Assembly: GCA_964016885.1 (NCBI GenBank)
Contig: OZ024741.1
Location: 342,798,001 to 342,862,000, forward strand
DNA: 64,000 nt
Reading direction: 5' to 3'
Source: Eledone cirrhosa
Lineage: Eukaryota
The position numbers were made by a program, and so were the translations under genes. The notes under the pieces are model-generated. The model searched no databases. It worked only from the letters and a program-made list of their open reading frames with translations, and had not been told where the DNA came from. Of the stretch, positions 5,570 to 62,139 are shown in pieces. Position 1 is the first letter of the stretch, and every line of letters begins with the position of its first letter.

Positions 5570-5640
5570 ATGTATGTATGTATGTATGTATGTATGTATG
5601 TATGTATGTATGTATGTATGTATGTATGTATGTATGTATG

Positions 5641-6167
5641 GCAACCCCACCAAGGTTTCTTGGTGAGGAGGGTGACCTTGGACATCGTGCAGGACTAAAA
5701 ACAAAACCTGTCAATGGGCAAAGGAGCTCTTAAGAGTCAATGGCCATCCAAAATCACCGGGAGAGATGACCCCTTAGCCTTTGTCAAGGCAGAATTCTAG
5801 GAGAAGGAAAACTCTGATATAACACCTGCAACCCTGATGGTATCCAATGATGTTGACTTGTTCTTCTTTTTTGTAAATATCATCTTGGTTAAGAGAGTGG
5901 GACTGGCTTTATGCAGTGCCTTTGCTCACTATAAAAGCTTCACGGCACAGGCATTGCTTTATATCTGGAGATCTCTCTGCACTTGTCGTCACATGGTACC
6001 ATAGGCCCAGCAATATGTGTCAATAATTGTCACAAGTGCAGTGTTTGTACCAGAGTTTTCAAGTCGCTGGCGGGACTAAAAAGTCACACTCGTTCAGCGC
6101 ATCAGTAGGGGTTCTCCTACATGGATATGAAGTAGTGGCCGTACTCGAAAACGAGTTGGCAGCCACC
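5641..6167 (+). mobile_element. Probable 5' UTR fragment of an RTE-type LINE
   Basis: GC-richer non-coding block between (TATG)n tracts. 'ggagaaggaaaactctga' resembles RTE 5' leaders (from recall, unverified). Confidence 0.35.
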
Positions 6168-6321
6168 ATGTATGTATGTATGTATGTATGTATGTATGTA
6201 TGTATGTATGTATGTATGTATGTATGTATGTATGTGTGTATGTATGTAGGTATGTATGTATGTATGTATGTATGTATGTATGTATGTGTGTATGTATGTA
6301 TGTACGTATGTACGTATGTAT

Positions 6322-6633
6322 GTTCTTCTGGTTTTATAATTTCACAAATTTTTTCCCAATAAAGAGAGAGTCGGTTTCTAACATAGACGCAAGACTCTCT
6401 CATTGGAATTTACACAACATCAACTAGGTAGTTTATGTATGTATGCATGCATGTATAAATATGGATGTTATTGAATGTGTGGATGTGTATGTTTTGAGTT
6501 GTATGTGTGCATCTGTATATGTTTTGTATCTGTACATGTGTATATGCAGTTATTAGATGCAAAACTTTTGGATTGTTTTACATATCTTTACTGTTCCATT
6601 AATGGATTGTACTTGTAATTTCCTAACTAGTTG
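6322..6633 (-). mobile_element. R4/Dong family A 3'UTR-only fragment
   Basis: Matches 3204-3500. Flanked by (TATG)n on both sides. Confidence 0.85.
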
Positions 6634-6686
6634 TGTCTATGTATGTATGTGTCTATGCATGTATGTATGTATGTATGTATGTATGT

Positions 6687-8545: not shown

Positions 8546-8652
8546 TGTATGTATGTATGTATGTATGTATGTATGTATGTATGTATGTATGTATGTATGT
8601 ATGTATGTATGTATGTATGTGTGTATCTATGTATGTTTGTGTGTATCTATGT

Positions 8653-11600
8653 TATCTCTTTCTCTTAATTTCGAGTATATTTTTTTGACCGGCCACCTTC
8701 CTGGTGGCAAGGTTATAAATGAAAAGAAATTGTCATCCCTACTTTCGCAAGAATGTTTTGCAAATTTTGAAGGTGCCAGCTATCGCAGCCATTTGCAGAC
8801 TATGAATTAGGGAGCAGCGCTTTTTGTCCGCAAATCCAAGTTCAGTCATACTTTGGTCCAAGCGGGTTGGTATATAACCCGTAGCTCCAATAATGATGGA
8901 TATGAAGCTAAAGGTGTATCTTGGATACTGGATTTGTAAACTCCTCATCAATGGTCCGTAGATGTCCTCCTTCTCCTGTATTTTTCTGACAACGTTTACA
9001 TCAAGTGGGCAGCTGATCTCCACAACAGAACACGTTTTCAATGTGTGGTCCCAAACAACAATATCAGGCCGGTTGTGCTTTAATTTGGTGGCAGTTTTTA
9101 TTTTCAGGTTCCACCAGTATTCCTTAGTGCCATCTGTCTCAATATATTCTTCCTCGTTTGTTGTTAATTTTGTTTTCCGAAGTGCGTTCCAGATGGTTCT
9201 AGCTATCCCATCGTGTCTCATGGGAGGTAGTAGCGAGATGACATCCTTTCGCAGCTGGCAACAATGTGGCTTACATCCTCGATCTTTGTTTTACATAGCC
9301 TACATTTATTGTCAGCTGCTGGCCCTCCTCTTTTGTGCAGCAGATATTTGGTAGGGAGTTCTTGTTCCTGTATTGCATAGAGATATCCCTCAAGGTGTGA
9401 TGTCATAAACTTGTCGGAACTCCATGCCAGGCTTTTTGAGTGGTTTATCCCCTCTATGGTCTGTGTTTTACGCCTCAAGTATCCATGCACAACTTTTTCT
9501 GTAAATTGGTCAATTTTTTTATCTTGTTTGAAAATTGAATAGGATCTTCCGATTTCTCTGGGTGAGAGATTTATATCAGGCTTTATTCCATATCTCTCCT
9601 CCAGAACAGTCGCTATTCTAATGATATTTTCTTTTTCATGCTCATAAACCTGGGCAAGATGGTTGCCAACCTTTTTCCTCTGTTGAAGGTGTTGCTTCAG
9701 TGTTACTATCCGGGTCTCATATGTTGTTAATATTGATTTTAGACCCCGGCCACCTTCCTTGCGTGAGAAGTATAGCCTATCCACATCACCATTGATGTTA
9801 AAGTTCCCAGTAACACTGAGAAGTTTTCGAGTTCTAACATCCATCTCACTTAGTTCTTGCAATGACCAGTTCAGCAGGCCAAATGTTGGCGTTAGAATTG
9901 GCACAGCATAAGTATTGTGGGCAATGTATTTGTTGTACGCTGACAATTCTGATGACCATGTTTTCTTTACTCTTCTGAGGTATTCAGTTCTGGTTCTCTC
10001 CTTATTTATGGGTCCATCATATCTGACATTCTCATCCTGTCCAAGATATCTGTAGTTGTCACCTGACTGTAGAGGTTGTATTGTCAGGCCGTTCATCTCT
10101 AGATTTCTAGAGGAGGGCACAGCTCTTCCACGTTTACTGCCAAATATGCACACTTGGACTCACCAAATTTCATTTTGATGTCGGTTGAAAATTGTGTAAT
10201 GAGGTCCAATTGTTTCTTGATGTCATTGATATTGGCCCATACAACTTCAGGTCGTCAACAAAGAAAAGATGGGAGATACTTCTGGGCCCACTTCTTTGTC
10301 CACCTTGTTTCCTGAGTAGGTAAGATAGTGGATTCAGTGAGAGAACGACGAGTAGCACTGACAAGCTATCACCCTGAAAGATGCCCTTCTGGTAATTATC
10401 TTATCAGTCTTAACTTGCTCCTTCTCACCTCTAAGGATCAAATTGGTGTACGAGTTCTTGGTCAGGCGTTCAACAGCAGCTACCAATGGTTGTGGGACTT
10501 TAGCTAACTGTAAAGCCTTAATAATCCACCCATGAGGTACACTATCAAATGCTTTTTGATAGTCCAGCCACACCACAGTCATGTTCCTGCGATTCTTTGT
10601 TGTTTTTTCCTGAATCATTTTGTTGGTTAGTAGGTGATCTATGCAACCCCACACCTCCCTCTTTCCACCAGTTTGCTCAGGTGTTATGATGTTGTTGGTA
10701 GCACAGTGATCCTGTAAGAACAGGTTAAGGCACCCAGTATATAATTTATACATGATGTTTTGGCAGGCTATTGGGCGGTAATTTTTAGCAAGGGTGGTTT
10801 GGCTATTTTGGGGAATGAGGAGAGTAGTGGCAGTTGATAACCATCTGGGCAGTTCTTGTGTGCCTTTAATGGTTTCTGTAAACAGCCGTATGAGATTTTG
10901 CCGATAGAAAGTGAAATTCTTCAACCTGTATCCTGTAACGAGGTCTGGGCCTGGCGATTTCCTATTCGACATTTTCTGTAGAGCTGTTTCCAGTATTGAT
11001 CCATCTATGTCATATTGTTTTGTCTGGACATGTTGGCAGTAGTCCTGTTCCAGTTCTTTTAGCCAATTAGTTTGTCTGTTGAATTCGTCATCCGTTTCCC
11101 ATACAGATCTCCAGTAGCTCTCAACCTGTTCTTTTGAAGGGGTGTCATTTACAGGGATTGAGCTTTTGCCACCGAAGCTGCGATAAACTGATTTAGGATA
11201 TCTGGCAAACAATCTATTTAGCACCTGTCGTTTATGTGCTGTTGACTTATATTTTAGTCTTTCTGCTGTAGCTGTGAGTTGTTTCAACTGGTGTAATTTG
11301 GAGTTCAAAGTTTTAAATTTTGTATCTCCAAATCATCTCTCTAACTTTTTTTTAGGTCTTCCTGGTGTCGTGTGAAGTTGCTCTCTATGTTGCATTTCAT
11401 AACGACTGCGATGTGTGAGATACTTCGTCTCAGGGACAAAATTTTGCTTTTTAAATTTCGCATCCACGCTGGTTCAGGCTTTCTGTTTGTATCTTGATTG
11501 CGTGGTTTTAGATGTGTGTTATATGATAGCAATGTGACAGCTGAAACATATAACAAAATATTAAGCGTTTCAAATGTCGTTTCTACACCTTTAGATCGTA

Positions 11601-12544
11601 TAGCCTTCAGATAATTGCCAGCTATTTCGTTCACCGCTTCCAATTCCAATTTAGTGGGTTCTTTACTGATTCTGGTGTTGTATGGTCTGTCACTCACATT
11701 AAGGCTGTGTATCTCTTGAAACATATCGTTCCATATCACTTGTAGGGTGTCCACAAGTTTTTGGTGTTCTGTTTGTTCAGTAGAGTCATGAATTTCAGCC
11801 TCGTTGTTGATGTGGTGACAATTACTACTAGAGTTAGCTGACCTTTGTCGCTGTTCTTCAGTGGAAGCGGGCTGGATTTCAGCAAAATTGTTGGTGAGCT
11901 GTTCACTGTTAGATTTAGCTGGCCATTCTCTTTGTCTGTCAGTGGAGGTGGGGTGGTTGTCTACAAGGGCTGTATTTGTAGTATCACTCAATTCCGTTAG
12001 ATGTATCAATTTACATCTAATGATACGTTTTGCCTGTTCATTTAAATGCTTTGGAGAAAAGTCTAATTCTGGGTATTTGGAGTTCCATACAGTTTTTAGC
12101 CTTTGCATAAAACCGAACTTTTGGGGTTCAGATTGTTTGTATGCTTCATATAATACTTTGTTAAGCTCGTAGCTCCACTGTATACAACGGTTGTAATTGC
12201 GATTTGGTCGAAGGAGACTTGTACTTTTTGCCATGATGAGTTCGTCTATTCACTAATATTTCGTATTTATTTTTCAAAATAGTCGATGATCTTCTTTAAA
12301 AGTTTCGACAAAGTTCTGACAGAATCAAATTTAAAGTTATTCACAGCTTGGGTAATATTTCTTTTCAGTTAGTTTTTAATTCTACAACTGTGTTTTAAAC
12401 GTTGTTCTTGAATCGTTTGAATCGAGAACAAAAAGAACCGTTACTTAGTATATTTCTTTATGAATGTAATATAATATAACAACGCTGTATTTATATGTTA
12501 AAGTTTATGTATCATTCATATAAACAGGTGTTCTACAACTTATT
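8653..12544 (-). mobile_element. Apparently full-length R4/Dong-like LINE family B (~3.9 kb)
   Basis: ~310-bp 5'UTR, ATG at 12234, Myb-like N-terminus (WSYELN..Y..S.P...GF..RL...W...YP), then KSPGPD, NYRPIAC, RT, CCHC and REL, split by ~5 frameshifts. (TATG)n on both sides. Confidence 0.95.
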
Positions 12545-21958: not shown

Positions 21959-24453
<2,495 letters not shown>

Positions 24454-25298: not shown

Positions 25299-25400
25299 TG
25301 TACACATGTATACATATATATATATATGTATACATATATATATATATATAGATATGTATGTATAATTATAATATATGTATATGTATATATATATATATAT

Positions 25401-27116
25401 TGGAATAAATGCTCTGAAATAGCGATATATATGTGAATATAGACATAGAATATTCGAAAATATTCTGTATGTTTATAATAAACATTTTGAAGACCTAATC
25501 GCTATAGAATAGAATACGTCACGTATTACAATTAGATTCTCGATAAAAGCAAGGGAAGTAATCTACGCGTTTCATTCTCGTTAGAAATCATCAGGACTAC
25601 ATATCCAGTGCTTTTATCGAGAATGACACAGCTAGAGACTTATAGAATACTTAGCTGTGTACAGGAACTGGTTTGAAAGAGCGGTTGCCGGTCCGGCAGA
25701 AATTAGAAATTGGAATAAATGCTCTGAAATAGCGATATATATGTGAATATAGACATAGAATATTCGAAAATATTCTGTATGTTTATAATAAACATTTTGA
25801 AGACCTAATCGCTATAGAATAGAATACGTCACGTATTACAATTAGATTCTCGATAAAAGCAAGGGAAGTAATCTACGCGTTTCATTCTCGTTAGAAATCA
25901 TCAGGACTACATATCCAGTGCTTTTATCGAGAATGACACAGCTAGAGACTTATAGAATACTTAGCTGTGTACAGGAACTGGTTTGAAAGAGCGGTTGCCG
26001 GTCCGGCAGAAATTAGAAATTGGAATAAATGCTCTGAAATAGCGATATATATGTGAATATAGACATAGAATATTCGAAAATATTCTGTATGTTTATAATA
26101 AACATTTTGAAGACCTAATCGCTATAGAATAGAATACGTCACGTATTACAATTAGATTCTCGATAAAAGCAAGGGAAGTAATCTACGCGTTTCATTCTCG
26201 TTAGAAATCATCAGGACTACATATCCAGTGCTTTTATCGAGAATGACACAGCTAGAGACTTATAGAATACTTAGCTGTGTACAGGAACTGGTTTGAAAGA
26301 GCGGTTGCCGGTCCGGCAGAAATTAGAAATTGGAATAAATGCTCTGAAATAGCGATATATATGTGAATATAGACATAGAATATTCGAAAATATTCTGTAT
26401 GTTTATAATAAACATTTTGAAGACCTAATCGCTATAGAATAGAATACGTCACGTATTACAATTAGATTCTCGATAAAAGCAAGGGAAGTAATCTACGCGT
26501 TTCATTCTCGTTAGAAATCATCAGGACTACATATCCAGTGCTTTTATCGAGAATGACACAGCTAGAGACTTATAGAATACTTAGCTGTGTACAGGAACTG
26601 GTTTGAAAGAGCGGTTGCCGGTCCGGCAGAAATTAGAAATTGGAATAAATGCTCTGAAATAGCGATATATATGTGAATATAGACATAGAATATTCGAAAA
26701 TATTCTGTATGTTTATAATAAACATTTTGAAGACCTAATCGCTATAGAATAGAATACGTCACGTATTACAATTAGATTCTCGATAAAAGCAAGGGAAGTA
26801 ATCTACGCGTTTCATTCTCGTTAGAAATCATCAGGACTACATATCCAGTGCTTTTATCGAGAATGACACAGCTAGAGACTTATAGAATACTTAGCTGTGT
26901 ACAGGAACTGGTTTGAAAGAGCGGTTGCCGGTCCGGCAGAAATTAGAAATTGGAATAAATGCTCTGAAATAGCGATATATATGTGAATATAGACATAGAA
27001 TATTCGAAAATATTCTGTATGTTTATAATAAACATTTTGAAGACCTAATCGCTATAGAATAGAATACGTCACGTATTACAATTAGATTCTCGATAAAAGC
27101 AAGGGAAGTAATCTAC
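25401..27116 (-). mobile_element. Retrozyme-like tandem array: 5.5 apparently identical 310-bp units, each with a hammerhead
   Basis: Units start at 25401, 25711, 26021, 26331, 26641 and 26951. No ORF in the track. (TA)n flanks. Confidence 0.92.
25558..25600 (-). ncRNA. Minimal type I hammerhead (repeated at 25868, 26178, 26488, 26798)
   Basis: GUAGUC-CUGAUGA-U UUCU AACG AGAA U-GAAAC GC GUA^-GAUUAC. Palindromic ACGCGU stem III. Distal 16-bp stem 25536-25551/25609-25624. Confidence 0.92.
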
Positions 27117-29162: not shown

Positions 29163-29295
29163 TTACACATAATTCATTTCATAATAGCGTGAGAAATACT
29201 TTTCAGATAATTTTTATGGAGTAACAAAGGACATACTAATTTGTTTTAGCGATTTTTCTTTACCAATAGTCCTTGTTGTAGACTAATATGTTGTG

Positions 29296-29402
29296 CGCAT
29301 GCACATTCTCACCATGTACACGCATGCACATTCTCACCATGTACACGCATGCACATTCTCACCATGTACACGCATGCACATTCTCACCATGTACACGCAT
29401 GC
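29296..29402. repeat. 25-bp minisatellite, 4.3 copies
   Basis: cgcatgcacattctcaccatgtaca. Confidence 0.95.
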
Positions 29403-29489
29403 TCACACACATACATATACTTGGCAGAGATAAATACTAAACTACGCTCACAAAGAAAAAACGCACACACGCACATACACAAATATATT

Positions 29490-32400
29490 GGCATACACAG
29501 TCACAGGCTTACACAGACACAGGCACATACATACATAGGCATACACAGACATACACAGTCACAGACATACACAGACACAGACATACACAGACATAGCCAT
29601 ACACAGACACAGACATACACAGTCACAGACATACACAGACACAGCCATACACAGACACAGACATACACATACACAGCCATACACAGACATAGCCATACAC
29701 AGACACAGACACAGACATACACAGTCACAGACATACACAGACACAGCCATACACAGACATAGCCATACACAGACACAGACATACACAGACATAGCCATAC
29801 ACAGACACAGACATACACAGACACAGACATACACAGACACAGACATACACAGACACAGCCACATACACAGACACAGACATGCACAGACACAGCCATACAC
29901 AGACACAGACATACACAGACGCAGACATACACAGACACAGACATACACAGACGCAGACATACACAGTCACAGACATACACAGACACAGACATACACAGAC
30001 ACAGACATGCACAGACACAGACATACACAGACACAGACATACACAGACGCAGACATACACAGTCACAGACATACACAGACATAGCCATACACAGACACAG
30101 ACATACACAGACATAGCCATACACAGACACAGACTTACACATACACAGCCATACACAGACACAGCCATACACAGACACAGACACATGCACAGACACAGCC
30201 ATACACAGACACAGACATACACAGACACAGCTATACACAGACACAGCCATACACAGACACAGACATACACAGACACAGACATACACAGACGCAGCCATAC
30301 ACAGACACAGCCATACACAGTCACAGCCATACACAGACACAGGCTTACACAAACACAGACAGACACAGACACAGCCATACACAGACACAGACATACACAG
30401 ACGCAGACATACACAGTCACAGACATACACAGACATAGCCATACACAGACACAGCCATACACAGACACAGACATACACAGACACAGACATACACAGACGC
30501 AGACATACACAGTCACAGACATACACAGACATAGCCATACACAGACACAGCTATACACAGACACAGCCATACACAGACACAGACATACACAGACACAGAC
30601 ATACATAGACACAGACATACACAGACACAGACAGACACAGACACAGACATACACAGACACAGACATACACAGACACAGACATACACAGACACAGACATAC
30701 ACAGACACAGCCACATACAGACACAGCCATACACAGACACAGACATACACAGTCACACACATACACAGACACAGCCTCACGCAGACACAGACATACAGAG
30801 ACACAGACATACACATACACAGACATACACATACACAGACATACACAGTCACAGGCTTACACAGACAGAGACACATACATACATAGGCATACACAGACAT
30901 ACACAAAAACAGGCGCAGACACAGGCACAGACATACACAGACACAGACATACACAGACACAGACATACACAGACACAGACATACACAGACACAGACATAC
31001 ACAGACACAGCCATACACAGACACAGACATACACAAACACAGTGTTAGACAGACACAGACATACAGAGACACAGACATACAGAGACACAGCCATACACAG
31101 ACACAGCCATACACAGACACAGACATACACAGACATAGACATACACAGACACAGCCACACACAGCCACAGGCTTACACAGACACAGACATACACAGACAC
31201 AGCCACACACAGACACAGTCATACACAGACACAGACATACACAGACACAGCCACACACAGACACAGTCATACACAGACACAGCCATACACAGACACAGCC
31301 ATACACAGACACAGACATACACAGACACAGACATACACATCCACAGACATACACAGACACAGACAGACAGAGACACAGCCACACACAGACACAAACATAC
31401 ACAGACACAGACATACACACACACAACCATACACAGACGCAGACATACACACACACAGCCATACACAGACACAAACATACACAGACACAGACATACACAT
31501 CCACAGACATACACAGACACAGACAGACACAGACACAGCCATACACAGACACAGACATACACATACACAGACATACATAGACACAGACATACACAGACAT
31601 AGCCACACAAAGACACAGACATACACAGACACAGCCATACACAGACACAGACATACACAGACATAGCCACACAAAGACACAGACATACACACACACAGCC
31701 ATACACAGACACAGACATACACAGACACAGACATACACAGACACAGACATACACAGACACAGACATACACAGACATAGCCACACAAAGACACAGACATAC
31801 ACACACACAGCCATACACAGACACAGCCATACACAGACACAGACATACACAGACACAGACATACACAGACACAGACATACACAGACATAGCCACACAAAG
31901 ACACAGACATACACACACACAGCCATACACAGACACAGACACAGACATACACACACACAGCCATACACAGACACAAACATACACAGACACAGACATACAC
32001 ATCCACAGACATACACAGACACAGACAGACACAGACACAGCCATACACAGACACAGACATACACAGACACAGACATACACAGACACAGACATACACAGAC
32101 ATAGCCACACAAAGACACAGACATACACAGACACAGCCACATACAGACACAGCCATACACAGACACAGACATACACAGACATAGCCATACACAGACACAG
32201 ACATACACAGACACAGACATACACAGACACAGCCATACACAGACACAGACATACACAGACACAGCCACATACAGACACAGCCATTTACAGACACAGACAT
32301 ACACAGACACAGACATACACAGACACAGCCACATACAGACACAGCCATACACAGACACAGCCACATACAGACACAGCCATACACAGACACAGACATACAC

Positions 32401-35400
32401 AGTCACAGACATACACAGACACAGCCACATACAGACACAGCCATACACAGACACAGACATACACAGACACAGACATACACAGACACAGCCATACACAGAC
32501 ACAGCCACATACAGACACAGCCATACACAGACACAGCCATACTCAGACACAGCCATACACAGACATAGCCACACACAGACACAGACATACACAGACACAG
32601 ACATACACAGACACAGCCACATACAGACACAGCCATACACAGACATAGACATACACAGACACAGACATACACAGACACAGCCATACACAGACACAGCCAC
32701 ATACAGACACAGCCATACACAGACACAGCCATAAACAGACACAGCCATACACAGACACAGCCATACACAGACACAGCCACATACAGACACAGCCATACAC
32801 AGACACAGACATACACAGACATAGCCATACACAGACACAGACATACACAGACACAGCCATACACAGACACAGACATACACAAACACAGTCTTAGACAGAC
32901 ACAGACATACAGAGACACAGCCATACACAGACACAGACATACACAGACACAGACATACACAGACACAGACATACACAGACACAGACATTTACAGACACAG
33001 ACATACACAGACACAGCCATACACAGACACAGACATACACAAACACAGTCTTAGACAGACACAGACATACAGAGACACAGACATACAGAGACACAGCCAT
33101 ACACAGACACAGCCATACACAGACACATACATACACAGACATAGACATACACAGACACAGCCACACACAGCCACAGGCTTACACAGACACAGACATACAC
33201 AGACACAGCCACACACAGACACAGTCATACACAGACACAGACATACACAGACAGAGCCACACACAGACACAGTCATACACAGACACAGCCATACACAGAC
33301 ACAGCCATATACAGACACAGCCATACACAGACACAGCCACATACAGACACAGACATACACAGACACAGACATACACAGACACAGACATACACAGACACAG
33401 CCACATACAGACACAGCCACATACAGACACAGACATACACAGACACAGACATACACATCCACAGACATACACAGACACAGACAGACAGAGACACAGCCAC
33501 ACACAGACACAAACATACACAGACACAGACATACACACACACATCCATACACAGACACAGACATACACACACACAGCCATACACAGACACAAACATACAC
33601 AGACACAGACATACACATCCACAGAAATACACAGACACAGACAGACACAGACACAGCCATACACAGACACAGACATACACAGACACAGACATACACAGAC
33701 ACAGACATACACAGACACAGCCATACACAGACACAGCCACATACAGACACAGCCATACACAGACACAGACATACACAGACATAGCCATACACAGACACAG
33801 ACATACACAGACACAGACATACACAGACACAGCCATACACAGACACAGACATACACAGACACAGCCACATACAGACACAGCCATACACAGACACAGCCAC
33901 ATACAGACACAGCCATACACAGACACAGACATACACAGTCACAGACATACACAGACACAGCCACATACAGACACAGCCATACACAGACACAGACATACAC
34001 AGACACAGACATACACAGACACAGCCATACACAGACACAGCCACATACAGACACAGCCATACACAGACACAGACATACACAGACATAGCCATACACAGAC
34101 ACAGACATACACAGACACAGACATACACAGACACAGCCATACACAGACACAGACATACACAGACACAGCCACATACAGACACAGCCATACACAGACACAG
34201 ACATACACAGACACAGCCACATACAGACACAGCCATACACAGACACAGCCACATACAGACACAGCCATACACAGACACAGACATACACAGACACAGCCAT
34301 ACACAGACACAGCCACATACAGACACAGCCATACACAGACACAGCCATACACAGACACAGACATACACAGACACAGACATACACAGACACAGCCATACAC
34401 AGACACAGCCACATACAGACACAGCCATACACAGACACAGACATACACAGACATAGCCATACACAGACACAGACATACACAGACACAGACATACACAGAC
34501 ACAGCCATACACCACAGACACAGACATACACAGACACAGCCACATACAGACACAGCCATACACAGACACAGACATACACAGACACAGCCACATACAGACA
34601 CAGCCATACACAGACACAGACATACACAGTCACAGACATACACAGACACAGCCGCATACAGACACAGCCATACACAGACACAGACATACACAGACACAGA
34701 CATACACAGACACAGCCACATACAGACACAGCCATACACAGACACAGACATACACAGACACAGACATACACAGACACAGCCATATACAGACACAGCCATA
34801 CACAGACACAGCCATACACAGACACAGACATACATAGACACAGCCATACACAGACACAGCCATACACAGACACAGACATACACATCCACAGACATACACA
34901 GACACAGACAGACAGAGACAGCCACACACAAACACAGACAGACAGAGACACAGCCACACACAGACACAAACATACACACAGACATACACAGACACAGCCA
35001 CACACAGACACAGACATACACAGACATACACAGACACAGCCACACACAGACACAGACATACACACACACAGACATACACAGACACAGTCACACACAGACA
35101 CAGTATACACACACACAGACATACACAGACACAGCCATACACAGACACAGACATACACAGACACAGACATACACAGACATAGCCACACAAAGACACAGAC
35201 ATACACAGACACAGCCATACACAGACACAGCCACATACAGACACAGCCATACACAGACACAGACATACACAGACATAGCCATACACAGACACAGACATAC
35301 ACAGACACAGACATACACAGACACAGCCATACACAGACACAGACATACACAGACACAGCCACATACAGACACAGCCATACACAGACACAGACATACACAG

Positions 35401-36690
35401 ACACAGACATACACATACACAGCCACATACAGACACAGCCATACACAGACACAGCCACATACAGACACAGCCATACACAGACACAGACATACACAGTCAC
35501 AGACATACACAGACACAGCCACATACAGACACAGCCATACACAGACACAGACATACACAGACACAGACATACACAGACACAGCCATACACAGACACAGCC
35601 ACATACAGACACAGCCATACACAGACACAGACATACACAGACACAGACATACACAGACACAGCCATACACAGACACAGACATACACAGACACAGCCACAT
35701 ACAGACACAGCCATACACAGACACAGACATACACAGACACAGACATACACAGACACAGCCACATACAGACACAGCCATACACAGACACAGACATACACAG
35801 ACACAGACATACACAGACACAGCCATACACAGACACAGACATAGACAGACACAGCCATACACAGACACAGCCATACACAGACACAGACATACACAGACAC
35901 AGACATACACAGACACGGCCATACACAGACACAGACATACACAGACACAGCCACATACAGACACAGCCATACACAGACACAGACATACACAGACACAGCC
36001 ACATACAGACACAGCCATACACAGACACAGCCACATACAGACACAGCCATACACAGACACAGACATACACAGTCACAGACATACACAGACACAGCCACAT
36101 ACAGACACAGCCATACACAGACTCAGACATACACATCCACAGACATACACAGACACAGACAGACAGAGACACAGCCACATACAGACACAGCCATACACAG
36201 ACACAGACATACACAGACACAGACCTACACAGACACAGCCATACACAGACACAGGCATAGACAGACACAGCCATACACAGACACAGCCATACACAGACAC
36301 AGACATACACATCCACAGACATACACAGACACAGACAGACAGAGACACAGCGACACACAGACACAGACAGACAGAGACACAGCCACACACAGACACAGAC
36401 AGACAGAGACACAGCCACACACAGACACAAACATACACACAGACATACACAGACACAGCCACACACAGCCACAGACATACACAGACACAGCCACACACAG
36501 ACACAGACATACACACACACAGACATACACAGACACAGCCACACACAGACACAGACATACACACACACAGACATACACAGACACAGACATACACAGACAC
36601 AGACATACACACACACAGACATACACACACACAGACATACACACACACAGACATACACAGACACAGACATACACAGACACAGACACACTA
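29490..36690. repeat. 7.2-kb satellite of 6-bp monomers (18-bp ACACAGACACAGACATAC / ...CCATAC unit) with higher-order duplications
   Basis: Rare markers (atccacag, agtcttagacag, ccacaggctt, acaaagac) recur in blocks. Confidence 0.95.
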
Positions 36691-36809
36691 ATACAGATAG
36701 GAGCCAGGAACTATAAACACACGAATGCGCGTAATTAAATCGTCCGAATATCCGGAACAAAATTTTCCTCCTCATCATCACATAAACACCCACCCCCGTT
36801 TATTAGCAA

Positions 36810-44730: not shown

Positions 44731-45489
44731 CGGGTGAAAGTATGGAAAAGAAACTGAAAATGCAAATGAAGTATTTTTAAGAATATTTATTTATTTCGGT
44801 TTCACAGTTCTTATGATTTTCAAAAGTAGGATTCAGATGGAGGGAGGGTTTGTATATATATATATAGTAAAAGAATGAAGAATAACATGGTCGGCTGTAC
44901 AAAAACGACACCTTGCTATCCTATATATATATATATATATTGATAAACGGAATAGAAAATGCTGACAAATTGTTCACAGTGAAAAATAGTTTAATTAGGA
45001 ATAAGTGAGAATTAGTAATTGTATTGGTTAGTATTCAGTTTTGGTTTTAAGTTTTACCGGTTGCGCATTTCTAATGCTTTTCAAAAGTAATTTTGAGATA
45101 GAGTGTCCGTGATGTTTGCTCTGTGCTGATTAGTTTGGGGGAATTCTACCTGTTTTTATGTTAAAAAAGTGGCTCCAGCGGTATTAAAATAAGTTTTGCG
45201 CCAATTCGTGTTGCAAAAATTCTTGTGGTCAAGGAAGATACAGTATCTTCCAACGGTTTTCAACCCCTCTATATAAAATATATCTCCTCTCTGTTATAAA
45301 AACTATCTCTTTCTCTCTATCACCCATCTCTCCCTCTCATCTCCTTCCCTTTTCATCCTTTTCTCTCCCCCCCTCTCTAAATAAAATATTTTTCCCAATA
45401 TCACACATCAATCTAAAACCACTTTTCATATGTTGATTTAAAACTGCACTATCAACAAGTGTTTTTTTAGCCTTCATATCATGTTCTCC

Positions 45490-45560
45490 TGTTTTATCTG
45501 ATGAAAACACAAATATTATTATTTGATGATGTTTGTTTTTGAAATGCGCATAATAAAATA
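45490..45560 (+). ncRNA. Type I hammerhead (element ~45430-45597, paralog at 58401-58570)
   Basis: UGUUUUAU-CUGAUGA-[long AU/GU stem II]-GAAAU GCGC AUA^-AUAAAAUA. Palindromic AUGCGCAU stem III. Confidence 0.85.
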
Positions 45561-45590
45561 TATTGAACTCCTTTAACCATCTTTTGATCT

Positions 45591-45623
<33 letters not shown>

Positions 45624-53463: not shown

Positions 53464-54052
53464 CACAGTTGTGATACTGATTGAAGTTAAATAAAAAAAA
53501 GAAAATGATATATAAAGGGGTTGGAAAAGATGATAATGGATACCACAGTGAAATTGATGATAGTGATGATGGGGGAAGATTCTGAGAAGGAGGGGCGTGC
53601 TGATTGATTGAGGAAAAGGTTGGGATCAGATTTTGTGGATCACTAAGAACCAAACACTAACAGTTTATCCAGAACTATTTGCGGTCTACTCAGGGAATGT
53701 GGCAGCATTTAAGCCTCATCCAATATCATGAATGTTCACTGGCAGAGCGAAAGATAATAGTAGTTGGTAGGAGGAGGGGAGGAGGTCTTGGATCAAAATA
53801 GATCGCGGATTTTCACAAGTTCTGAGTTCAAATAACACCAAGATCAACTTTGTGTTTCATCCTTCCGAGGTTGATAAAATAAAAGTTCAGTAAAATATTG
53901 TGGTCGATATAATCGATTTCCCCCAAAAGAATTGCTGATCTCATGTTTAAATTAGACATATATAACAAAAGTAATAACAACAGCAATAACAACAACAACC
54001 ACAACAATAACATCAACAACAACAACAACAACAACAACAGTATCAACAACAA

Positions 54053-54087
<35 letters not shown>

Positions 54088-54189
54088 CCAACAGTATCAA
54101 CGACAACAACAACAACAACAACAGGAATAACAATAGCGTCAGGACATCACTGATCTATATCATGACTTTTTGTAATCATGATGATTGCT

Positions 54190-56455
54190 GTATTGATAAT
54201 GTTGGTAGTGGTGTTGTAGTATCGGTGGTAGTTGTGGTAAGATCGATAGTTATGGTAGTAGTGTAAAAATGATAGTGTTGTTGTAGTAATGGTAGTATTG
54301 GTGGTAGTTGTGTTTGTTGTAGCGCTTGTGATAATGTTGGCAGTGGTGTTGTAGTAAGATCTGTGTGGGTGGTAGTTGTGGTAAGACTGATAGTGTAGTA
54401 GTAATGGTAGTATTGGTGGTAGTTGTGTTTGTTGTAGCGCTTGTGATAATGTTGGCAGTGGTGTTGTAGTAAGATCTGTGTGGGTGGTAGTTGTGGTAAG
54501 ACTGATAGTGTAGTAGTAATGGTAGTATTGGTGGTAGTTGTGTTTGTTGTAGCGGTTGTGATAATGTTGGAAGTGGTGTTGTAGTAAGATCTGTGTGGGT
54601 GGTAGTTGTGGTAAGACTGATAGTGTAGTAGTAATGGTAGTATTGGTGGTAGTTGTGTTTGTTGTAGCGGTTGTGATAATGTTGGCAGTGGTGTTGTAGT
54701 AAGATCTGTGTGGGTGGTAGTTGTGGTAAGACTGATAGTGTTTTTGTAATGGTAGTATTGGTGGTAGTTGTGTTAGTTGCAGTAAGACTATTGTGTTCTT
54801 GTGGCATTGTAGTAATAGTGGTTTTGGTGTTGTAGTTGTGGTATGACTGGTAATATTAGTAGTGGTATTGTAGTAATGGTGGTATTATTTGATGTAGTTA
54901 TGGTAAGACTGATGGCATTGGTAGTTGTGTTGTAGTAATGGTGGTAGTTGTGGTAGTTGTGGCGGTTGTGGTGTTGGTGATAGTTGTGGTAATTATAGTA
55001 GTATTTGTGGTAGTTGTGATGGTTGTGGTGTTGGAGGTAATTGTGGTAGTAATGGTAGTATTTGTGGTAGTTGTGGTAGTTGTGGTGGTTGTGGTGTTGG
55101 TGGTAGTTGTGGTAGTTATGGTAGTATTTGCGGTAGTTGTGATGGTTGTGGTGTTGGTGATAGTTGTGGTAGTTATAGTAGTATTTGTGGTAGTTGTGGT
55201 AGTTGTGGTGTTGGAGGTAGTTGTGGTAGTAATGGTAGTATTTGTGGTAGTTGTGGTAGTTGTGGCGGTTGTGGGGTTGGTGGTAGTTGTGGTAGTTATG
55301 GTAGTATTTGTGGTAGTTGTGATGGTTGTGGTGTTGGAGGTAGTTGTGGTAGTAATGGTAGTATTTGTGGTAGTTGTGGTAGTTGTGGCGGTTGTGGGGT
55401 TGGTGGTAGTTGTGGTAGTTATGGTAGTATTTGTGGTAGTTGTGATGGTTGTGGTGTTGGAGGTAGTTGTGGTAGTAATGGTAGTATTTGTGGTAGTTGT
55501 GGTAGTTGTAGTGGTTCTGGTATTGGTGGTAGTTGTGGTAGTAATGGTAGTATTTGTGGTAGTTGTGGTAGTTGTGGCGGTTGTGGGGTTGGTGGTAGTT
55601 GTGGTAATTATAGTAGTATTTGTGGTAGTTGTGATGGTTGTGATGGTTGTGGTGTTGGAGGTAATTGTGGTAGTAATGGTAGTATTTTTGGTAGTAGTGA
55701 TGGTTGTGGTGTTGGAGGTAGTTGTGGTAGTAATGGTAGTATTTTTGGTAGTAGTGATGGTTGTGGTGTTGGAGGTAGTTGTGGTAGTAATGGTAGTATT
55801 TTTGGTAGTAGTGATGGTTGTGGTGTTGGAGGTAGTTGTGGTAGTAATGGTAGTATTTGTGGTAGTTGTGGTAATTGTGGCGGTTGTGGGGTTGGTGGTA
55901 GTTGTGGTAGTTATGATAGTATTTGTGGTAGTAGTGATGGTTGTGGTGTTGGAGGTAGTTGTGGTAGTAATGGTAGTATTTGTGGTAGTTGTGGTAGTTG
56001 TGGTGGTTGTGGTGTTGGAGGTAGTTGTGGTAGTTATAGTAGTATTTGTGGTAGTTGTGATGGTTGTGGTGTTGGAGGTAGTTGTGGTAGTAATGGTAGT
56101 ATTTGTGGTAGTTGTGGTAGTTGTAGTGGTTCTGGTATTGGTGGTAGTTGTGGTAGTTGTGTCGGTTGTGATGTTGGAGGTAGTTGTGGTAGTTATAGTA
56201 GTATTTGTAGTAGTTGTGGTGGTTGTGGTATTGGAGGTAGTTGTGGTAAGACTGATACTATTGGTAGTTGTGTTGTAGTAATGGTAGTATTTGTAGTAGT
56301 TGTAGTAGTTGTGACGCTGGTGGTAGTTGAAGTAAGACTGATAATATTGGTAGTTGCGTTGTAGAAATGGTGGTATTTGTAGTAGTTGTGGTGGTTGTGG
56401 TGTTGGTGGTAGTTGTGTTGTAGTAATAGTTGTATTTGTGGTAAGACTGATGATG
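54190..56455. repeat. GT-rich trinucleotide-derived minisatellite (123-bp units at ~54270-54750, then ~50-60-bp units)
   Basis: Recurrent gtaagatctgtgtgggtgg and ggtagtaatggtagtatttgtgg. Confidence 0.9.
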
Positions 56456-56948
56456 GAGGCGTTGCTGTTCATGCCTGGTGGCTGGTAGCTGATGAGAATT
56501 ATTATTAATTGGTAATACAGGTGCCGAGTCCTTCAGAGTGGGTAGTTTGGTTTTGTGAACCAGATAAGAGAGCGAGAGAGGTAGGGAGGTAAGGCAAGGA
56601 ATTATTTTCTAAAAGACAATCTACAGATATAATCGAGCATTCATTCAGTTTTCGAGTCAGTCAAATTCACAGCCACTCAATTAATTCCATTTAAGAACAA
56701 ATCTCTCCCTCAAGCTCCTAGACATTCACTATTAACACTCGCTCTATTGAAGCTCTATCTCATCCACATTGATCCCCCATTCCACTTAATTATATTCTCA
56801 TATATGGAAACACTTCACTCAATGCCTCATTCTATTACCCTTTATTTTCTTATTTAGATTGTACTTTTTCTATCTTCTGCCAAGAACGCACCTTGTTTAA
56901 GTATGTATATGCACACATACGCACACACACAAACACAAATACACACAC

Positions 56949-56990
<42 letters not shown>

Positions 56991-57092
56991 GAGTATATGT
57001 TTCTACACGCACAAGGCGCTAAGGGACACATGTATTGTCCAACCATATGCCAGTGTGGTTCAATGGCAGGTTAATAAATTAACGAGCCAGAA

Positions 57093-57320
57093 CATATATA
57101 ATCAAGGTTTAGCAAATAAGGAAAAGTTTCAAAATAAATTAAAAAAAATTAACTTTACTTACTATGGTTACCTTTACCGAATCGGTTTCGAGTCTCAAAA
57201 ATAAACGGAGTCCATACGGCATCCGTTGCAAAGATAAACTCTCGTCAGAAGGCAACCATAATAAGTAAAGTTAATTTAAAAAAATTTATTTTGAAACTTT
57301 TTCTTATTTGCTAAACCTTG

Positions 57321-57328
<8 letters not shown>
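57093..57328. repeat. Foldback with ~80-bp arms capped by a hammerhead
   Basis: 57093-57174 versus 57249-57328. Confidence 0.9.
57165..57258 (-). ncRNA. Type I hammerhead with long stem II
   Basis: UGGUUGCCUU-CUGACGA-GAGUU...GACUC-GAAAC CGAUUCG GUA^-AAGGUAACCA. Confidence 0.9.
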
Positions 57329-57357
<29 letters not shown>

Positions 57358-57362
<5 letters not shown>

Positions 57363-58155
57363 ACGCGTTCTTGAGACTAGTAAAATGAGGTATCCTCTTG
57401 ATAAGTCGGCAGACCTCGCAAGGACTCTATATCTTCATGATATATTGTTTTTGTTTATGCCACGAAACTACGTAGTCGAGGAATTTAGGAGCAGTTTAGG
57501 TATGATACATTTTATTACTAATTATATCTAAATGTTTCTTCTCTCTTCATAATGTATTTTTAACTCTGATACTGGTTCAGTCTAGTTCAACTGAATTGGT
57601 CTGTCCCAGTCATTCATTGAGCAACATCGGTGAAGTTGGCACCCTTAACTCACAGTTGGGTGCGGATGCATTCATGTATATATGTGTGTGTGTCCGCATG
57701 TATCTGTGTGTTTCTAATTATATTGTTAATAACTCCCTCTGGTCGAGCAATCTTTGAGGTGTGGGGACAGCTGGAAGGCTTCCATTACTCATACTTCTTG
57801 CCTTCTTCACCACCTCTTCTACGGCCTCGATATAAATACCCCCTCCGCCTCCGTGGTATTTTCTTCGGGGTTATAAGAGGCTTAGCTCTGTTTCTCGACC
57901 GTTATATCGCGTGACTATCTCCCCCTCCGCCTTTTGGGATTCTTTCTCACGTCGTGTAGACGCGTTCTTGAGACTAGTAAAATGAGGTATCCTCTTGATA
58001 AGTCGGCAGACCTCGCAAGGACTCTATATCTTCATGATATATTGTTTTTGTTTATGCCACGAAACTACGTAGTCGAGGAATTTAGGAGCAGTTTATGTAT
58101 GATACATTTTATTACTAATTATATCTAAATGTTTCTTCTCTCTTCATAATGTATA
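57358..58155 (+). mobile_element. 1.3-unit partial tandem (597-bp period, ~200-bp direct repeats), non-autonomous, with two hammerheads
   Basis: 57358-57557 matches 57955-58154 nearly identically. (TA)n on both sides. No credible ORF. Confidence 0.88.
57393..57482 (+). ncRNA. Hammerhead, U3-A8 core variant (second copy at 57990-58079)
   Basis: UCCUC-UUGAUAA-GUCGGCA...UGCCAC-GAAAC UACGUA GUC^-GAGGA. Palindromic ACUACGUAGU stem III. Confidence 0.85.
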
Positions 58156-58187
58156 TATATATATATATATATATACATATATATATG

Positions 58188-58275
<88 letters not shown>

Positions 58276-58373
58276 GGAGGTGAGTTTTATTGTAGTACAA
58301 TAAAGCAATGCAGATATCGGATAAGAAGCACTCTACAGTTTGTAGGACTGGAGTATACATAATATATAAGATC

Positions 58374-58409
<36 letters not shown>

Positions 58410-58439
58410 AGATCAAAAGATGGTTAAAAGAGTTCCATG

Positions 58440-58510
58440 TATTTTATTATGCGCATTTCAAAAACAAATATCATCATGGGATGATATTTGCGTTCTCATC
58501 AGATAAAATA
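58440..58510 (-). ncRNA. Type I hammerhead
   Basis: UAUUUUAU-CUGAUGA-GAACGCAAAUAUCAUC CCAU GAUGAUAUUUGUUUUU-GAAAU GCGC AUA^-AUAAAAUA. Confidence 0.9.
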
Positions 58511-58589
58511 GGGAGACATGATATGAAGCTTAACAAACACTTGCGAGCAGTGAAGTGTTAAATCAACATACTATAAATATATATATATA

Positions 58590-59562
58590 GTTAGGAAAGC
58601 AGAAAATTGCTTATTGTAATCCAATTCGTGGTTAAGATAACCCGTTTCTTGGACGGTTTCCAACGTACGGTTAGGGGGTAACTCCACAAGTTTGCAAGAA
58701 TCTGGTTAGTAAATCCCGTTCAATCTTGGAGTATAAACAATAACAGAGAAAACACAGGTAAGTATTAAAAAAAAGGATTTTATCCAGGTATTTACGACCG
58801 TTTCATTGGTAAGCGCAACCTTATATCGCTATACTGCAAATAGCAGCCACTCGATAATAACTGTTATTCACCTCCAAATTATCAAAATAATGAATAAGTT
58901 ACTTGTAAAAGGTTCTTAATATATAAAAAAACATTTTTTGGAATCGTATTTACTAGTACAGAGAGAGAGGAAGGGGAGAATAATTAGGAAGTAGAGGGAC
59001 AAACGGAGATGGAGGGAGGGGTAAAGATGGAATGATTCTTCGAACAGTTTTGATTCGTAGACTTGATTTACAGTGTAGGGAGTTAAAGAGAATTAAATTG
59101 TTTATAGTGGGAGGAAGAGAGAGAGAGAAAGAGAGAGAATGAGAGAGAGTGAGAGAGAGAGAGAGATAGGGGGGGGGAGATAGAGAGATAAATATATACA
59201 TATATAAAAAGAGGGAAGAGAAAAAAGAAGAAAAGAAAAAAGAACAAAAACAGGGAGAGGAGAAAACGAAAAAAGAAAAAAGGAATGAAGGAGGAGAGAG
59301 GGACGTAAGTATTGGTTACTGTGGGTAATTAAAGTGGTTAGATTCAATAAGTGGGCAGAAAGTCTAAGTATATGCAGTTTGTCAGGCGGTAGTAGGAGGT
59401 TAAGGGTTCGATTTGCACTTGTAGTGCGAACATTTTTCTTTAAGTCTATGGTTGCAATAAATTGATCGATTTTATTGTTGAGTAACTTATTCTTCGAACT
59501 CAAAATGTGGAACAGTTCAAGGTCACAAAATCGATAAGTGCAAATCGAACCTTTAACCTCCT
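58590..59562 (-). mobile_element. Probable Naiad-type PLE extreme 3' fragment with short 5' inverted segment
   Basis: 'KLLNNKID..YCNHRLK' resembles the C-terminus at ~38900 (LLNNRIERSLYCNYRLK). Inverted repeat ~59394-59421/59536-59562. Candidate U3-A8 HHR at ~58790-58895. Confidence 0.55.
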
Positions 59563-59584
59563 ATATATATATATATATATATAT

Positions 59585-60125
59585 GTAGAAGATGATGTGG
59601 TTGAGAGGAAGAGCAAGGCCTGGGCGGCGTGCCACAGCTTGAGATCGGTGTGGAAGTCGGACCTTCGTAGAGACCTGAAAATCCGCCTCTTCATTGCTGT
59701 AGTGGAGTCTGTGCTGCTGTATGGGTCTGAGACTTGGACACTGACCAAGAAACTCACTCAGATGGTGGATGGGTGCTACACGAGAATGCTGAGGATGGCT
59801 CTGAACATTAATCAGTATACACTGAGGATGAAAAACTCAGAGCTGTATGGGAGCATCCCAAAAGTCAGCTCAAAAGTGACACAGAGGAGACTGAGGTTGG
59901 CTGGACATGCTCACCGACATCCAGAGTTGACATTGCACTCAGTGCTCCTTTGGGAGCCCCTACATGGACACACTAGAAGCGGAAGACCAAGGTTAACGTA
60001 TGTTGATGCCCTAAGGACAGACACTGGTCTGTTTGAGATGCTGGACATGGCAGCGATAATGAGGGACAGAGACCGCTGGAGAGAACTCGTCCATGGATCT
60101 CGGGAATTTTACCCGCCTTAGATAG

Positions 60126-60127
<2 letters not shown>
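59585..60127 (+). mobile_element. RTE-clade LINE 3' end, intact frame, inserted in (TA)n
   Basis: KIRLFIAVVESVLLYGSETWTLTK..RRLRLAGH..GRP. Stop at 60121 with a short (TAGA) tail. Confidence 0.9.
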
Positions 60128-60186
<59 letters not shown>

Positions 60187-60469
60187 CTTGACCACAAAAA
60201 AATACTTTTTAAAAAATCATGTTCACTTAAAAATAATTTTTAAATAATGCAAAATGAAATTGAAAGGCCCATATATATATATAGTTCTACTTGTGGGGGG
60301 GGGGGGGGGGGGTCATATTGTGGTAATAATATTCCCAGAATTAATAACAGAACACGCTCACTGTTTGGTTGGTTTTCGCTTTATATCAGTTAATTCATTC
60401 ACTCCTCAATGTTTACCATTGACTGACCAACGGTAAAAAATACAGATATAATATAGATATAAACACATA

Positions 60470-61312
60470 TATATAGTCTAACAAAGTTCTTTCGTTGCAC
60501 ATCTGCAACATCGTCAGTGGTGCTATTATGTTCTTCCTGTTGTATTGTATATCTACGCCATCTTTATTTTATCTGTTTATTTATTTATTTATTTATTTAT
60601 TTATTTTTGTCTTCTCTGCGTATGCGTTTGCGAGTGTGTATAGTGTTTGGTGTGTGTTCGCGTTTGGGTGACTGTGTTTTGGTTATTGTATTCTATCTTA
60701 GTTTATTAGTGTGTGTTTATATGTGTTTGTTGTTATTGTGCTTGTGTATATATATATATTTATTTATTCATATTTCTCTTAAGTTAGTACTGTTTGTTTG
60801 GGTGTTGTTGTTATTCCATTTATTTTTTCTGTTTAGCTTTGGCTTTCTAAGTTCTATTTCACTTGCCTCCCTGATTTGCCTATCTGCTAGGTCATTTTTA
60901 TGTTTAGATATTATTTTAATTTCTATGTTGTCTATGTTACCGTCATGTTGTTGTCTGGCGTGTTCGTATAGTACTGAACCGCTTTTCGTCCTTTTAGTTC
61001 CCCCCAGTGTTGGTCTATCCTTTCACCTATGCTACGAGCTGTCTCCTCTATATATGTTGTTGTCATGTTTCTGCATGTACTCTCTGTACATCTTATGCTA
61101 TAGACTACGTTTCTAGTTTTACAGTTTATCCGGGGGTTTACTTTAAATATAATACATTTAGTATTAGTTCAGTGGATTTTCTTAAAAGGGTATGTTTTGA
61201 TGATCAGGGATTTTATGGTAGTTCGTGGCTTTTCTACCACTTTAATCTTTAAGTGGGTCTTTCTCAGGGCCTTTCTACACTGGTTAGCTAATTTCCCTCC
61301 AGGTAAAAAATC
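60470..61312 (-). mobile_element. PLE 3' fragment of a non-Naiad clade: GIY-YIG, 3'UTR and degenerate hammerhead
   Basis: Manual translation NCKTRNVVYSIRC..C..TYIEETARSIGERIDQH (not in the ORF track). CUGACGA-U GUUGCA GAUG UGCAAC-GAAA at 60490-60517. Confidence 0.8.
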
Positions 61313-61318
61313 TCGCAA

Positions 61319-61366
<48 letters not shown>

Positions 61367-61411
61367 GTTATACATATATATATGTGGGTGTCTGTGACCT
61401 ATATACACTGG

Positions 61412-61508
<97 letters not shown>

Positions 61509-62139
61509 AACACTCACACACATATACTCACAAACTTAGAAACCCTTCCTATTTAGCAGGAAATATTTACTACACATAACCTGTTTTAACACAAGTTATA
61601 TGATACATATGACTTAATATTCAGTCCCCAAATTTTATCTAGATACAGTAATGCTATATTCGGTTCTTTGAAGTCACCTGTTATAATTTCATTCAACAAC
61701 ACCAACATCTCTCTCTCGCTGAATCTACTCACTCACAACCATCATCTCTTTCTCTCTCTATTTTTTTTTTATATCTCGTGAACCCGTGCTCTGATTTACG
61801 CGAAACTTATTTCATTCCATTTGCATTCCAATTTCAGGGCCAACTTCCTTTCAAAGTATTTCCCCATTATGCACCCTTTTGGCCGTATTAAATTACAGAC
61901 AAGCACATGATCACAGAGTATTAATAGTATATAGATACATATATTCAAAATAAACAACAACTCCCTCTACACCACCACTACTACCACCACCACCACCCTC
62001 CACCACCACATATTTTAAAATCCTGTCAAATAATTCAACAAAAGCATACCACACAAAAAAGATCTACCCCACACCCCAGAGGTTTACAGAAGATGAAAAC
62101 ATTTGTTGTTTCAAAATAAACAAATATTGTAGTAGGATA

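Follow-up and report, generated by a model that had tools for sequence, protein, structure and literature searches.

A 597-nt non-LTR retrozyme family with a Penelope-type insertion footprint in the genome of Eledone cirrhosa

How retrozymes and Penelope-like elements (PLEs) are copied into genomes is an open question. Circular templates were proposed for PLEs in 2014, in connection with their head-to-tail arrangement (PMC4209133), and again in 2020; retrozyme circles have been seen in mussel and axolotl, and editing has been named as one possible cause of circle heterogeneity (PMC7229834). Inverted, 5'-truncated copies that sit in (TA)n and carry a tail on one side only are the described pattern of PLE insertion (PMC8557442). 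For one element, the anole PLE PAc, cutting and extension of both strands by a predicted dimer and priming at two internal sites were reported in vitro in 2024 (PMC11167929). A 2026 preprint gives vertebrate retrozymes units of 51-972 bp and a PLE origin (bioRxiv 10.64898/2026.07.22.740005). The hammerhead core with a U3-A8 pair has been reported in nature, following earlier in vitro activity (PMC3088659), and a dedicated descriptor found it in about 1,300 Penelope-like motifs of Schistosoma (PMC4209133, 2014). The available text of these papers is the basis of the comparisons made here. A family with thousands of recent insertions makes three points testable, namely a circular versus a linear template, the use of one of each start site per insertion and the writing of edited bases into DNA.

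The window, a 64,000-nt stretch of E. cirrhosa DNA (contig OZ024741.1), carries such an insertion at 57358..58154 (+). It comprises 1.33 head-to-tail units, is 5'-truncated and has its 3' end at one of two start sites, site A. The full 597-nt unit lies at 57358..57954 (+) and is numbered q1-597, q being the window position minus 57357. The left and right parts of a (TA)n target flank the insertion (57323..57356 and 58155..58272). An inverted repeat with 81-nt, 90% complementary arms (57094-57329), MITE-like in appearance, lies directly upstream of the TA tract, and long simple-repeat arrays with strong strand skew occupy 29250-36800 and 54150-56530. The direct repeats described in the earlier note (57358-57557 and 57955-58154; 200 nt) are real and spaced by 597 nt, with one mismatch (57499 G / 58096 T); they are the overlap of 1.33 head-to-tail units and not terminal repeats. 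With 42% GC, the unit is predicted to be highly paired in its circular form (z about -9 against 40 shuffles). Its longest ATG ORF has 82 aa (57666-57914), and a coding role was rejected, the tract having common 2- and 4-base deletions in other copies. A long predicted hairpin at 57478..57557 (+) precedes site A (q200), whose second copy at 58075-58154 is the end used by the window insertion. Another predicted hairpin (57660..57724, +) precedes site B (q366-367), which serves about half of all arms genome-wide and is unused by the window insertion.

Each of the two repeats contains a type I hammerhead motif (57393..57482 and, identical to it, 57990..58079; both +). In the first, stem I pairs UCCUC (57393-97) with GAGGA (57478-82), and the core UUGAUAA (57398-404) is followed by a 59-nt stem II domain (57405-463) with the base GU[C]GGCA/UGCCAC and a bulged C, by GAAA (57464-67), by the 10-nt palindrome ACUACGUAGU of stem III (57467-76) and by GUC. 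All features of a type I hammerhead are present, that is, core boxes, a Watson-Crick 3-8 pair, GAAA, UH and three stems. The parts listed in the earlier note, including a stem II domain of about 59 nt, were found as described in both copies, and sequence and fold agree on a predicted ribozyme with a compensatory U3-A8 pair. This core, which the earlier note had called non-canonical, is indeed compensatory and in print as active, and so is not novel (PMC3088659, PMC4209133). An Rfam search of 54000-62000 returned no hammerhead family at E<=1. The hammerhead fold lies 1.1 kcal/mol above the minimum when the motif is folded alone and 8.9 kcal/mol above it within the full repeat, since there the 3' strand of stem I pairs with downstream sequence instead; a stem III duplex of two hammerheads was computed at -12.9 kcal/mol. 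RNA of the window element is predicted to cut itself at its hammerheads, after 57477 and, 597 nt further on, after 58074. The spacing bears out the claim that cutting would release an exact 597-nt monomer, which on the sequence would span 57478..58074 (+).

The abundance of the family was assessed with a 22-nt pattern over the core in which positions 3 and 8 were left free. The 3.0-Gb genome contains 6,178 matching core copies and no match to the reversed control pattern; the hammerhead core match is therefore not due to chance. The first 100 matches in genome order fall into 56 loci; scaled up, this gives about 3,400 loci genome-wide. U3-A8 is present in 6,152 of the 6,178 copies (99.6%); position 3 is changed in 12 copies, all with A8, and position 8 in 14, all with U3, single changes thus amounting to 0.2% at each position. 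C3-G8 occurs in none of the 6,178 copies, and no motif combining C3-G8 with this stem III turned up in a pattern search of the genome. The 597-nt family is fixed for U3-A8. Variation among paralogs at positions 3 and 8, put forward earlier as a test of the pair, shows no covariation, and the single changes correspond to background mutation, neither supporting nor refuting the pair. A different kind of evidence comes from old copies (less than 90% identical, ten loci). The 3' half of the ribozyme, which lay outside the 22-nt search pattern, differs at only 8 of 312 positions (2.6%), as compared with 786 of 4,948 (15.9%) in the remainder of the unit; the figure for the stem II domain is 142 of 611. 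The ribozyme is thus under selection in old subfamilies, which is indirect support for function and no proof of cutting.

Other hammerhead repeats occur in the window and elsewhere in the genome. An array of 310-nt units at 25399-27116 (-), with a canonical C3-G8 hammerhead and a palindromic stem III in each of five, belongs to another retrozyme family that is also found at locus L049. Two copies that are 87% alike (45429-45623, +; 58377-58570, -) have a canonical core, a 36-nt stem II and a TA end; 12 motifs of this family were seen in 10 of the sequences examined, and one copy lies 220 nt from the 597-nt insertion. A second non-coding U3-A8 family (L043, L090, L099, L020, L236, L263), with a 13-nt stem II and a CCGG stem III, is inserted at TA and has inverted arms and two 3' ends, one of which resembles site B. 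Two canonical hammerheads 691 nt apart at L275:7629-8370 have a 49-nt stem II; extended stem II domains are frequent in this genome.

The anatomy of the insertions was analyzed in the 56 loci taken in genome order. The 3' ends of 84 of their 91 arms coincide with site A (q199-201, 43 arms) or site B (q366-374, 41 arms), which are 166 nt apart, and nearly all of these ends abut (TA)n. The 5' ends are scattered, and arm length ranges from 33 to 2,907 nt (0.1 to about 5 units); the window copy is a single arm ending at site A. In 26 of the 27 simple two-armed loci an A end is paired with a B end; the lone A+A locus joins copies of different age, and one further locus is a duplicated A+B insertion. 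A second set of 60 further loci was picked by the B end. A simple second arm is present in 30 of them and ends at A in all 30, the remainder being single-armed (21), having a second arm outside the bins (6, two of them at q194) or falling into neither group (3). Both sets together have one A and one B end in 56 of 57 simple two-armed insertions. Partial tandems, 5' truncation, an inverted arm, a tail at one end and a microsatellite target, all part of the footprint of a non-autonomous PLE, are present, and the 597-nt family has a Penelope-type insertion footprint, which the earlier note had passed over together with the copy number and the A>G signal described below.

The unit itself is not an autonomous PLE, as it contains no ORF for RT and GIY-YIG domains. 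Proteins with both domains are encoded in the genome. An ORF-bearing element sharing the 597-nt sequence, as an autonomous PLE might in its pLTR, was not found in 48 loci of two PLE families, which share only short end motifs with it and which we presume to be Neptune-like from a linker motif. The young family (L260-L267, L277) has open frames of up to 784 aa (RT and GIY-YIG) and ends in TA/CA repeats; it was rejected as the partner because it does not resemble the unit and a scan of it revealed no hammerhead. The old, decayed family (L230-L259, L268, L275) carries a U3-A8 hammerhead-like motif with an imperfect stem I 3' of the ORF and a short end motif that resembles site A. A GIY-YIG element in inverted arrangement was also seen at L046 and L164, where a short hairpin between UUGAU and GAAA in the 3' region may be a reduced hammerhead. 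The window further contains broken ORFs of a non-LTR retrotransposon (4440-12249, -), which encode RT and, C-terminally, a nuclease-like motif and include a tandem duplication of 1.9 kb (6632-8545 / 8598-10506), as well as two RT fragments. One of these (23062-23601, +) has no Pfam match and is presumably PLE-like by its motif, and the other (59486-60121, +) has a weak DUF6451 match.

Multi-unit insertions permit template changes to be separated from later ones. Variants in all units of an insertion were assigned to the template, and those in one unit only to later DNA mutation. The first set comprised 55 multi-unit loci of 76, and the second, fetched afterwards, 37 of 60; the counts exclude units below 93% identity and the tracts q78-81, q318-340 and q358-372, as well as L065, nine loci that overlapped and any locus picked for a core variant. 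Among 62 shared variants in the first set, 32 are A>G and 5 T>C, as compared with 13 and 12 among the unit-specific ones (Fisher p 0.004). The second set gave 32 A>G and 10 T>C among 62 shared variants, and 17 and 24 among the unit-specific ones (p 0.002). The signal weakens when counted strictly: private variants, absent from the 15 nearest loci, comprise 24 A>G versus 10 T>C overall (p 2e-4), but 8 versus 5 (p 0.08) when the second set is taken by itself. When the changes are placed on a tree of 111 loci, A>G makes up 30 of the 57 concordant ones at the tips and 37 of the 110 internal ones, and the same A>G site has up to 7 origins.

The affected sites have features in common. Predicted A-U pairs hold 21 of the 23 recurrent A>G sites. 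Of 191 variants, the first 100 listed include 82 in which A141, the middle base of a UAG, reads G; A141G occurs on several backgrounds and runs through whole insertions. Single insertions contain A>G clusters of 4 and 5 (L080, L082). ADAR targets are known for depletion of G on the 5' side and enrichment of G on the 3' side. A 5' G is found at 1 of 43 A>G events, and the neighbour bias points in the ADAR direction without being significant per site (p 0.28 for 5' G, 0.16 for 3' G). Strand specificity of A>G in paired regions, a feature of ADAR substrates, is present. The sense-strand excess of A>G is probably ADAR editing written back into the genome.

The same excess might instead reflect selection on RNA structure that tolerates a change from A-U to G-U and not from U to C, strand-biased mutation in transcribed source copies, or an error bias of the RT or polymerase. 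Structure does account for part of the asymmetry between A>G and T>C, because pair-breaking T>C is rare among shared variants (an A-U pair is broken by only 1 of 10), and 19 of 24 private A>G events keep the pair as G-U; the lack of a significant per-site neighbour bias also suits a cause other than ADAR. Selection for G-U pairs should, however, favour C>T equally, yet the private events include 19 A>G at 83 A-U sites and only 4 C>T at 70 C-G sites, even though C>T leads among the later DNA mutations (57 versus 30 A>G). Clusters and recurrent hot spots also speak against these causes, and errors of the RT would presumably not be common to all units. As a full explanation they are considered unlikely.

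The agreement between units bears on the template. Within insertions, both arms included, the same base is found in 2,582 of 2,633 multiply covered cases (98%) at 44 polymorphic sites, as compared with an expected agreement of about 74% between loci; one insertion (L082) has 8 units that share five A>G changes. One haplotype across units and arms implies that a monomer was multiplied at some generation, and a circle that is read round repeatedly is the simplest account of these sequences, in line with the proposal made for PLEs and with the circles of mussel and axolotl. The unit is also covered by contigs from four runs whose kind is not recorded, one of which, 620 nt long, returns to a point 595 nt earlier; they are no evidence for circular RNA, because tandem DNA collapses alike.

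A linear template would dispense with the circle. One possibility is that a homogeneous array is transcribed into a multimer that stays uncut; another is a single cut monomer, with the RT leaping from its 5' end back to its 3' end. PLE insertion by the anole PAc in vitro used unprocessed RNA and did not need the ribozyme (PMC11167929, as far as the available text goes), and source arrays are homogeneous, so that their transcripts would give concordant units. Slightly more 5' ends than elsewhere fall precisely on the cut site, which would also suit such a template. No arm stopped there in 111 passes among the first 56 loci, a sample biased to read-through. Genome pattern counts gave 7,705 copies of q141-162 versus 6,178 of q32-53. 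The C before q121 is absent in only 64 copies, and 18 of 30 examined have true 5' junctions at this point; at the control positions, 8 of 30 examined (of 47) at q107, one of them a small deletion, and 4 of 30 (of 191) at q142 are non-colinear. Over the same span this amounts to 18 versus 7-8 ends (one-sided p 0.02-0.04), and the counts in contig C1 at q121, q107 and q142 are 8, 5 and 3. The weak pile-up is a faint hint that a few templates may have been cut linear RNAs. If multimers were the only templates, however, arrays could lose length but never gain it, yet arms as long as about 5 units are still present; private changes found in all units and in both arms require passage through a monomer in one generation or another; and related retrozymes are mostly or half circular in tissues (PMC7229834). 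A template that was linear throughout is thus judged quite improbable.

Homogenisation or expansion of the arrays after insertion, by unequal crossing-over or gene conversion as in satellites, has been proposed for vertebrate retrozyme arrays (bioRxiv 10.64898/2026.07.22.740005), and one locus with a duplicated insertion (L055) fits it. It is highly improbable here and largely refuted, as the spectra of shared and unit-specific variants differ, which homogenisation at the DNA level would not cause; moreover, 282 unit-specific later mutations persist in 92 loci, and inverted arms have a common haplotype. The repeats cannot be read as the LTRs of a small element such as a plant-type LTR retrozyme or a TRIM. 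That impression is created by the window copy alone, with its two 200-nt repeats flanking 397 nt, and is refuted by the anatomy of 56 loci, which have no fixed LTRs and instead head-to-tail multimers, variable 5' ends, inverted arms, two alternative 3' ends and a hammerhead of type I, not type III.

The window element is probably a young copy of a non-autonomous, non-coding retrozyme whose RNA is predicted to be cut, and which is likely circularised, likely edited by ADAR and likely copied by a PLE into TA microsatellites. In this scheme, a two-ribozyme copy such as that of the window would, with high probability, be transcribed and cut at both sites. The monomer would probably be circularised and then fold so that the ribozyme is off, and ADAR is likely to edit some of its A-U pairs. 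A Penelope-type RT/GIY-YIG protein, probably a dimer, would very likely nick (TA)n and prime inside the RNA at A or B. When both DNA ends prime, there is a good probability that one would use A and the other B on the same RNA, yielding back-to-back arms. The RT would then probably circle until it drops off, after 0.1 to about 5 units per arm, and two-ribozyme copies would be regenerated. Counting against the circular mechanism, nearly all arms read through the cut site, which fits uncut multimers too. Two insertions (L103, L105) also speak against it, each having the same position-8 change (U8; G8) in both of its tandem units, so that loss or wobbling of the 3-8 pair did not keep a template from being copied; in addition, eight of nine Xenopus retrozyme dimers are reported not to cleave (bioRxiv 10.64898/2026.07.22.740005). 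A bolder version, to which we give slightly less than an even chance, would have each insertion as the rolling-circle copy of one ADAR-edited circle, primed by a dimeric PLE enzyme at two fixed sites from both ends of a TA break, with editing in place of DNA mutation as the main source of heritable change. If true, editing would ratchet A-U pairs to G-U, the core of the ribozyme staying unchanged, and the family would be a fossil record of single-molecule events.

By its sequence, the window element is classed as a non-LTR retrozyme, with non-coding head-to-tail units and a type I hammerhead in each, and it also has the testable features of a non-autonomous PLE. It shares with metazoan non-LTR retrozymes a non-coding tandem unit with a type I hammerhead each, a GC content below 45%, thousands of copies, a highly paired predicted circle and the presence of PLEs in the genome (PMC7229834; bioRxiv 10.64898/2026.07.22.740005). 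It differs from the tested invertebrate retrozymes in its U3-A8 core, its 59-nt stem II domain and its 597-nt unit, which is, as the earlier note held, above their 170-400 nt (PMC7229834) and nevertheless within the 51-972 bp of the 2026 vertebrate survey (bioRxiv 10.64898/2026.07.22.740005). Circles have been seen for metazoan retrozymes, whereas those of the window family are predicted from sequence only; conversely, insertion ends and variant sharing have been mapped in this family, unlike in the metazoan retrozyme studies as far as their available text goes.

A U3-A8 core and head-to-tail arrangement are common to the family and to PLEs with U3-A8 or atypical hammerheads, such as Schistosoma Cercyon and Drosophila virilis Penelope, the latter also having a bulge inside helix II and a palindromic helix III (PMC4209133). 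Unlike these elements, the window family is without an ORF, could form a three-base-pair stem III as a monomer, and is very homogeneous and young. The U3-A8 pair is ordinary and matters only in that canonical searches miss such families. Poseidon PAc of Anolis (PMC11167929) and PLE anatomy in general (PMC8557442) provide the parallel for two internal start sites downstream of the hammerhead, an AT-rich target, an inverted second arm and a tail at one end. In PAc, however, the tail measures 30-40 bp, whereas the start sites here are 166 nt apart and their strict one-of-each use has been measured on 57 insertions; both sites end in a TA-like sequence that would allow pairing to the target, whereas priming by PAc involves no homology (PMC11167929). 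Among the papers listed by literature searches, none was on twin or strict one-of-each priming in PLEs or on editing of retrozyme or PLE copies, and subscription papers and supplements may hold such reports.

A>G hypermutation by ADAR is known from retroviruses and HDV. The resemblance lies in sense-strand A>G changes in paired RNA that are carried into progeny, and the difference in light, site-recurrent, probable editing of a small non-coding element that is fixed in germ-line DNA and is common to all units of an insertion. The family belongs to a known class and has a known core variant; its unit size, stem II and tail are new, and it is of value chiefly for the record of the mechanism that its copies preserve.
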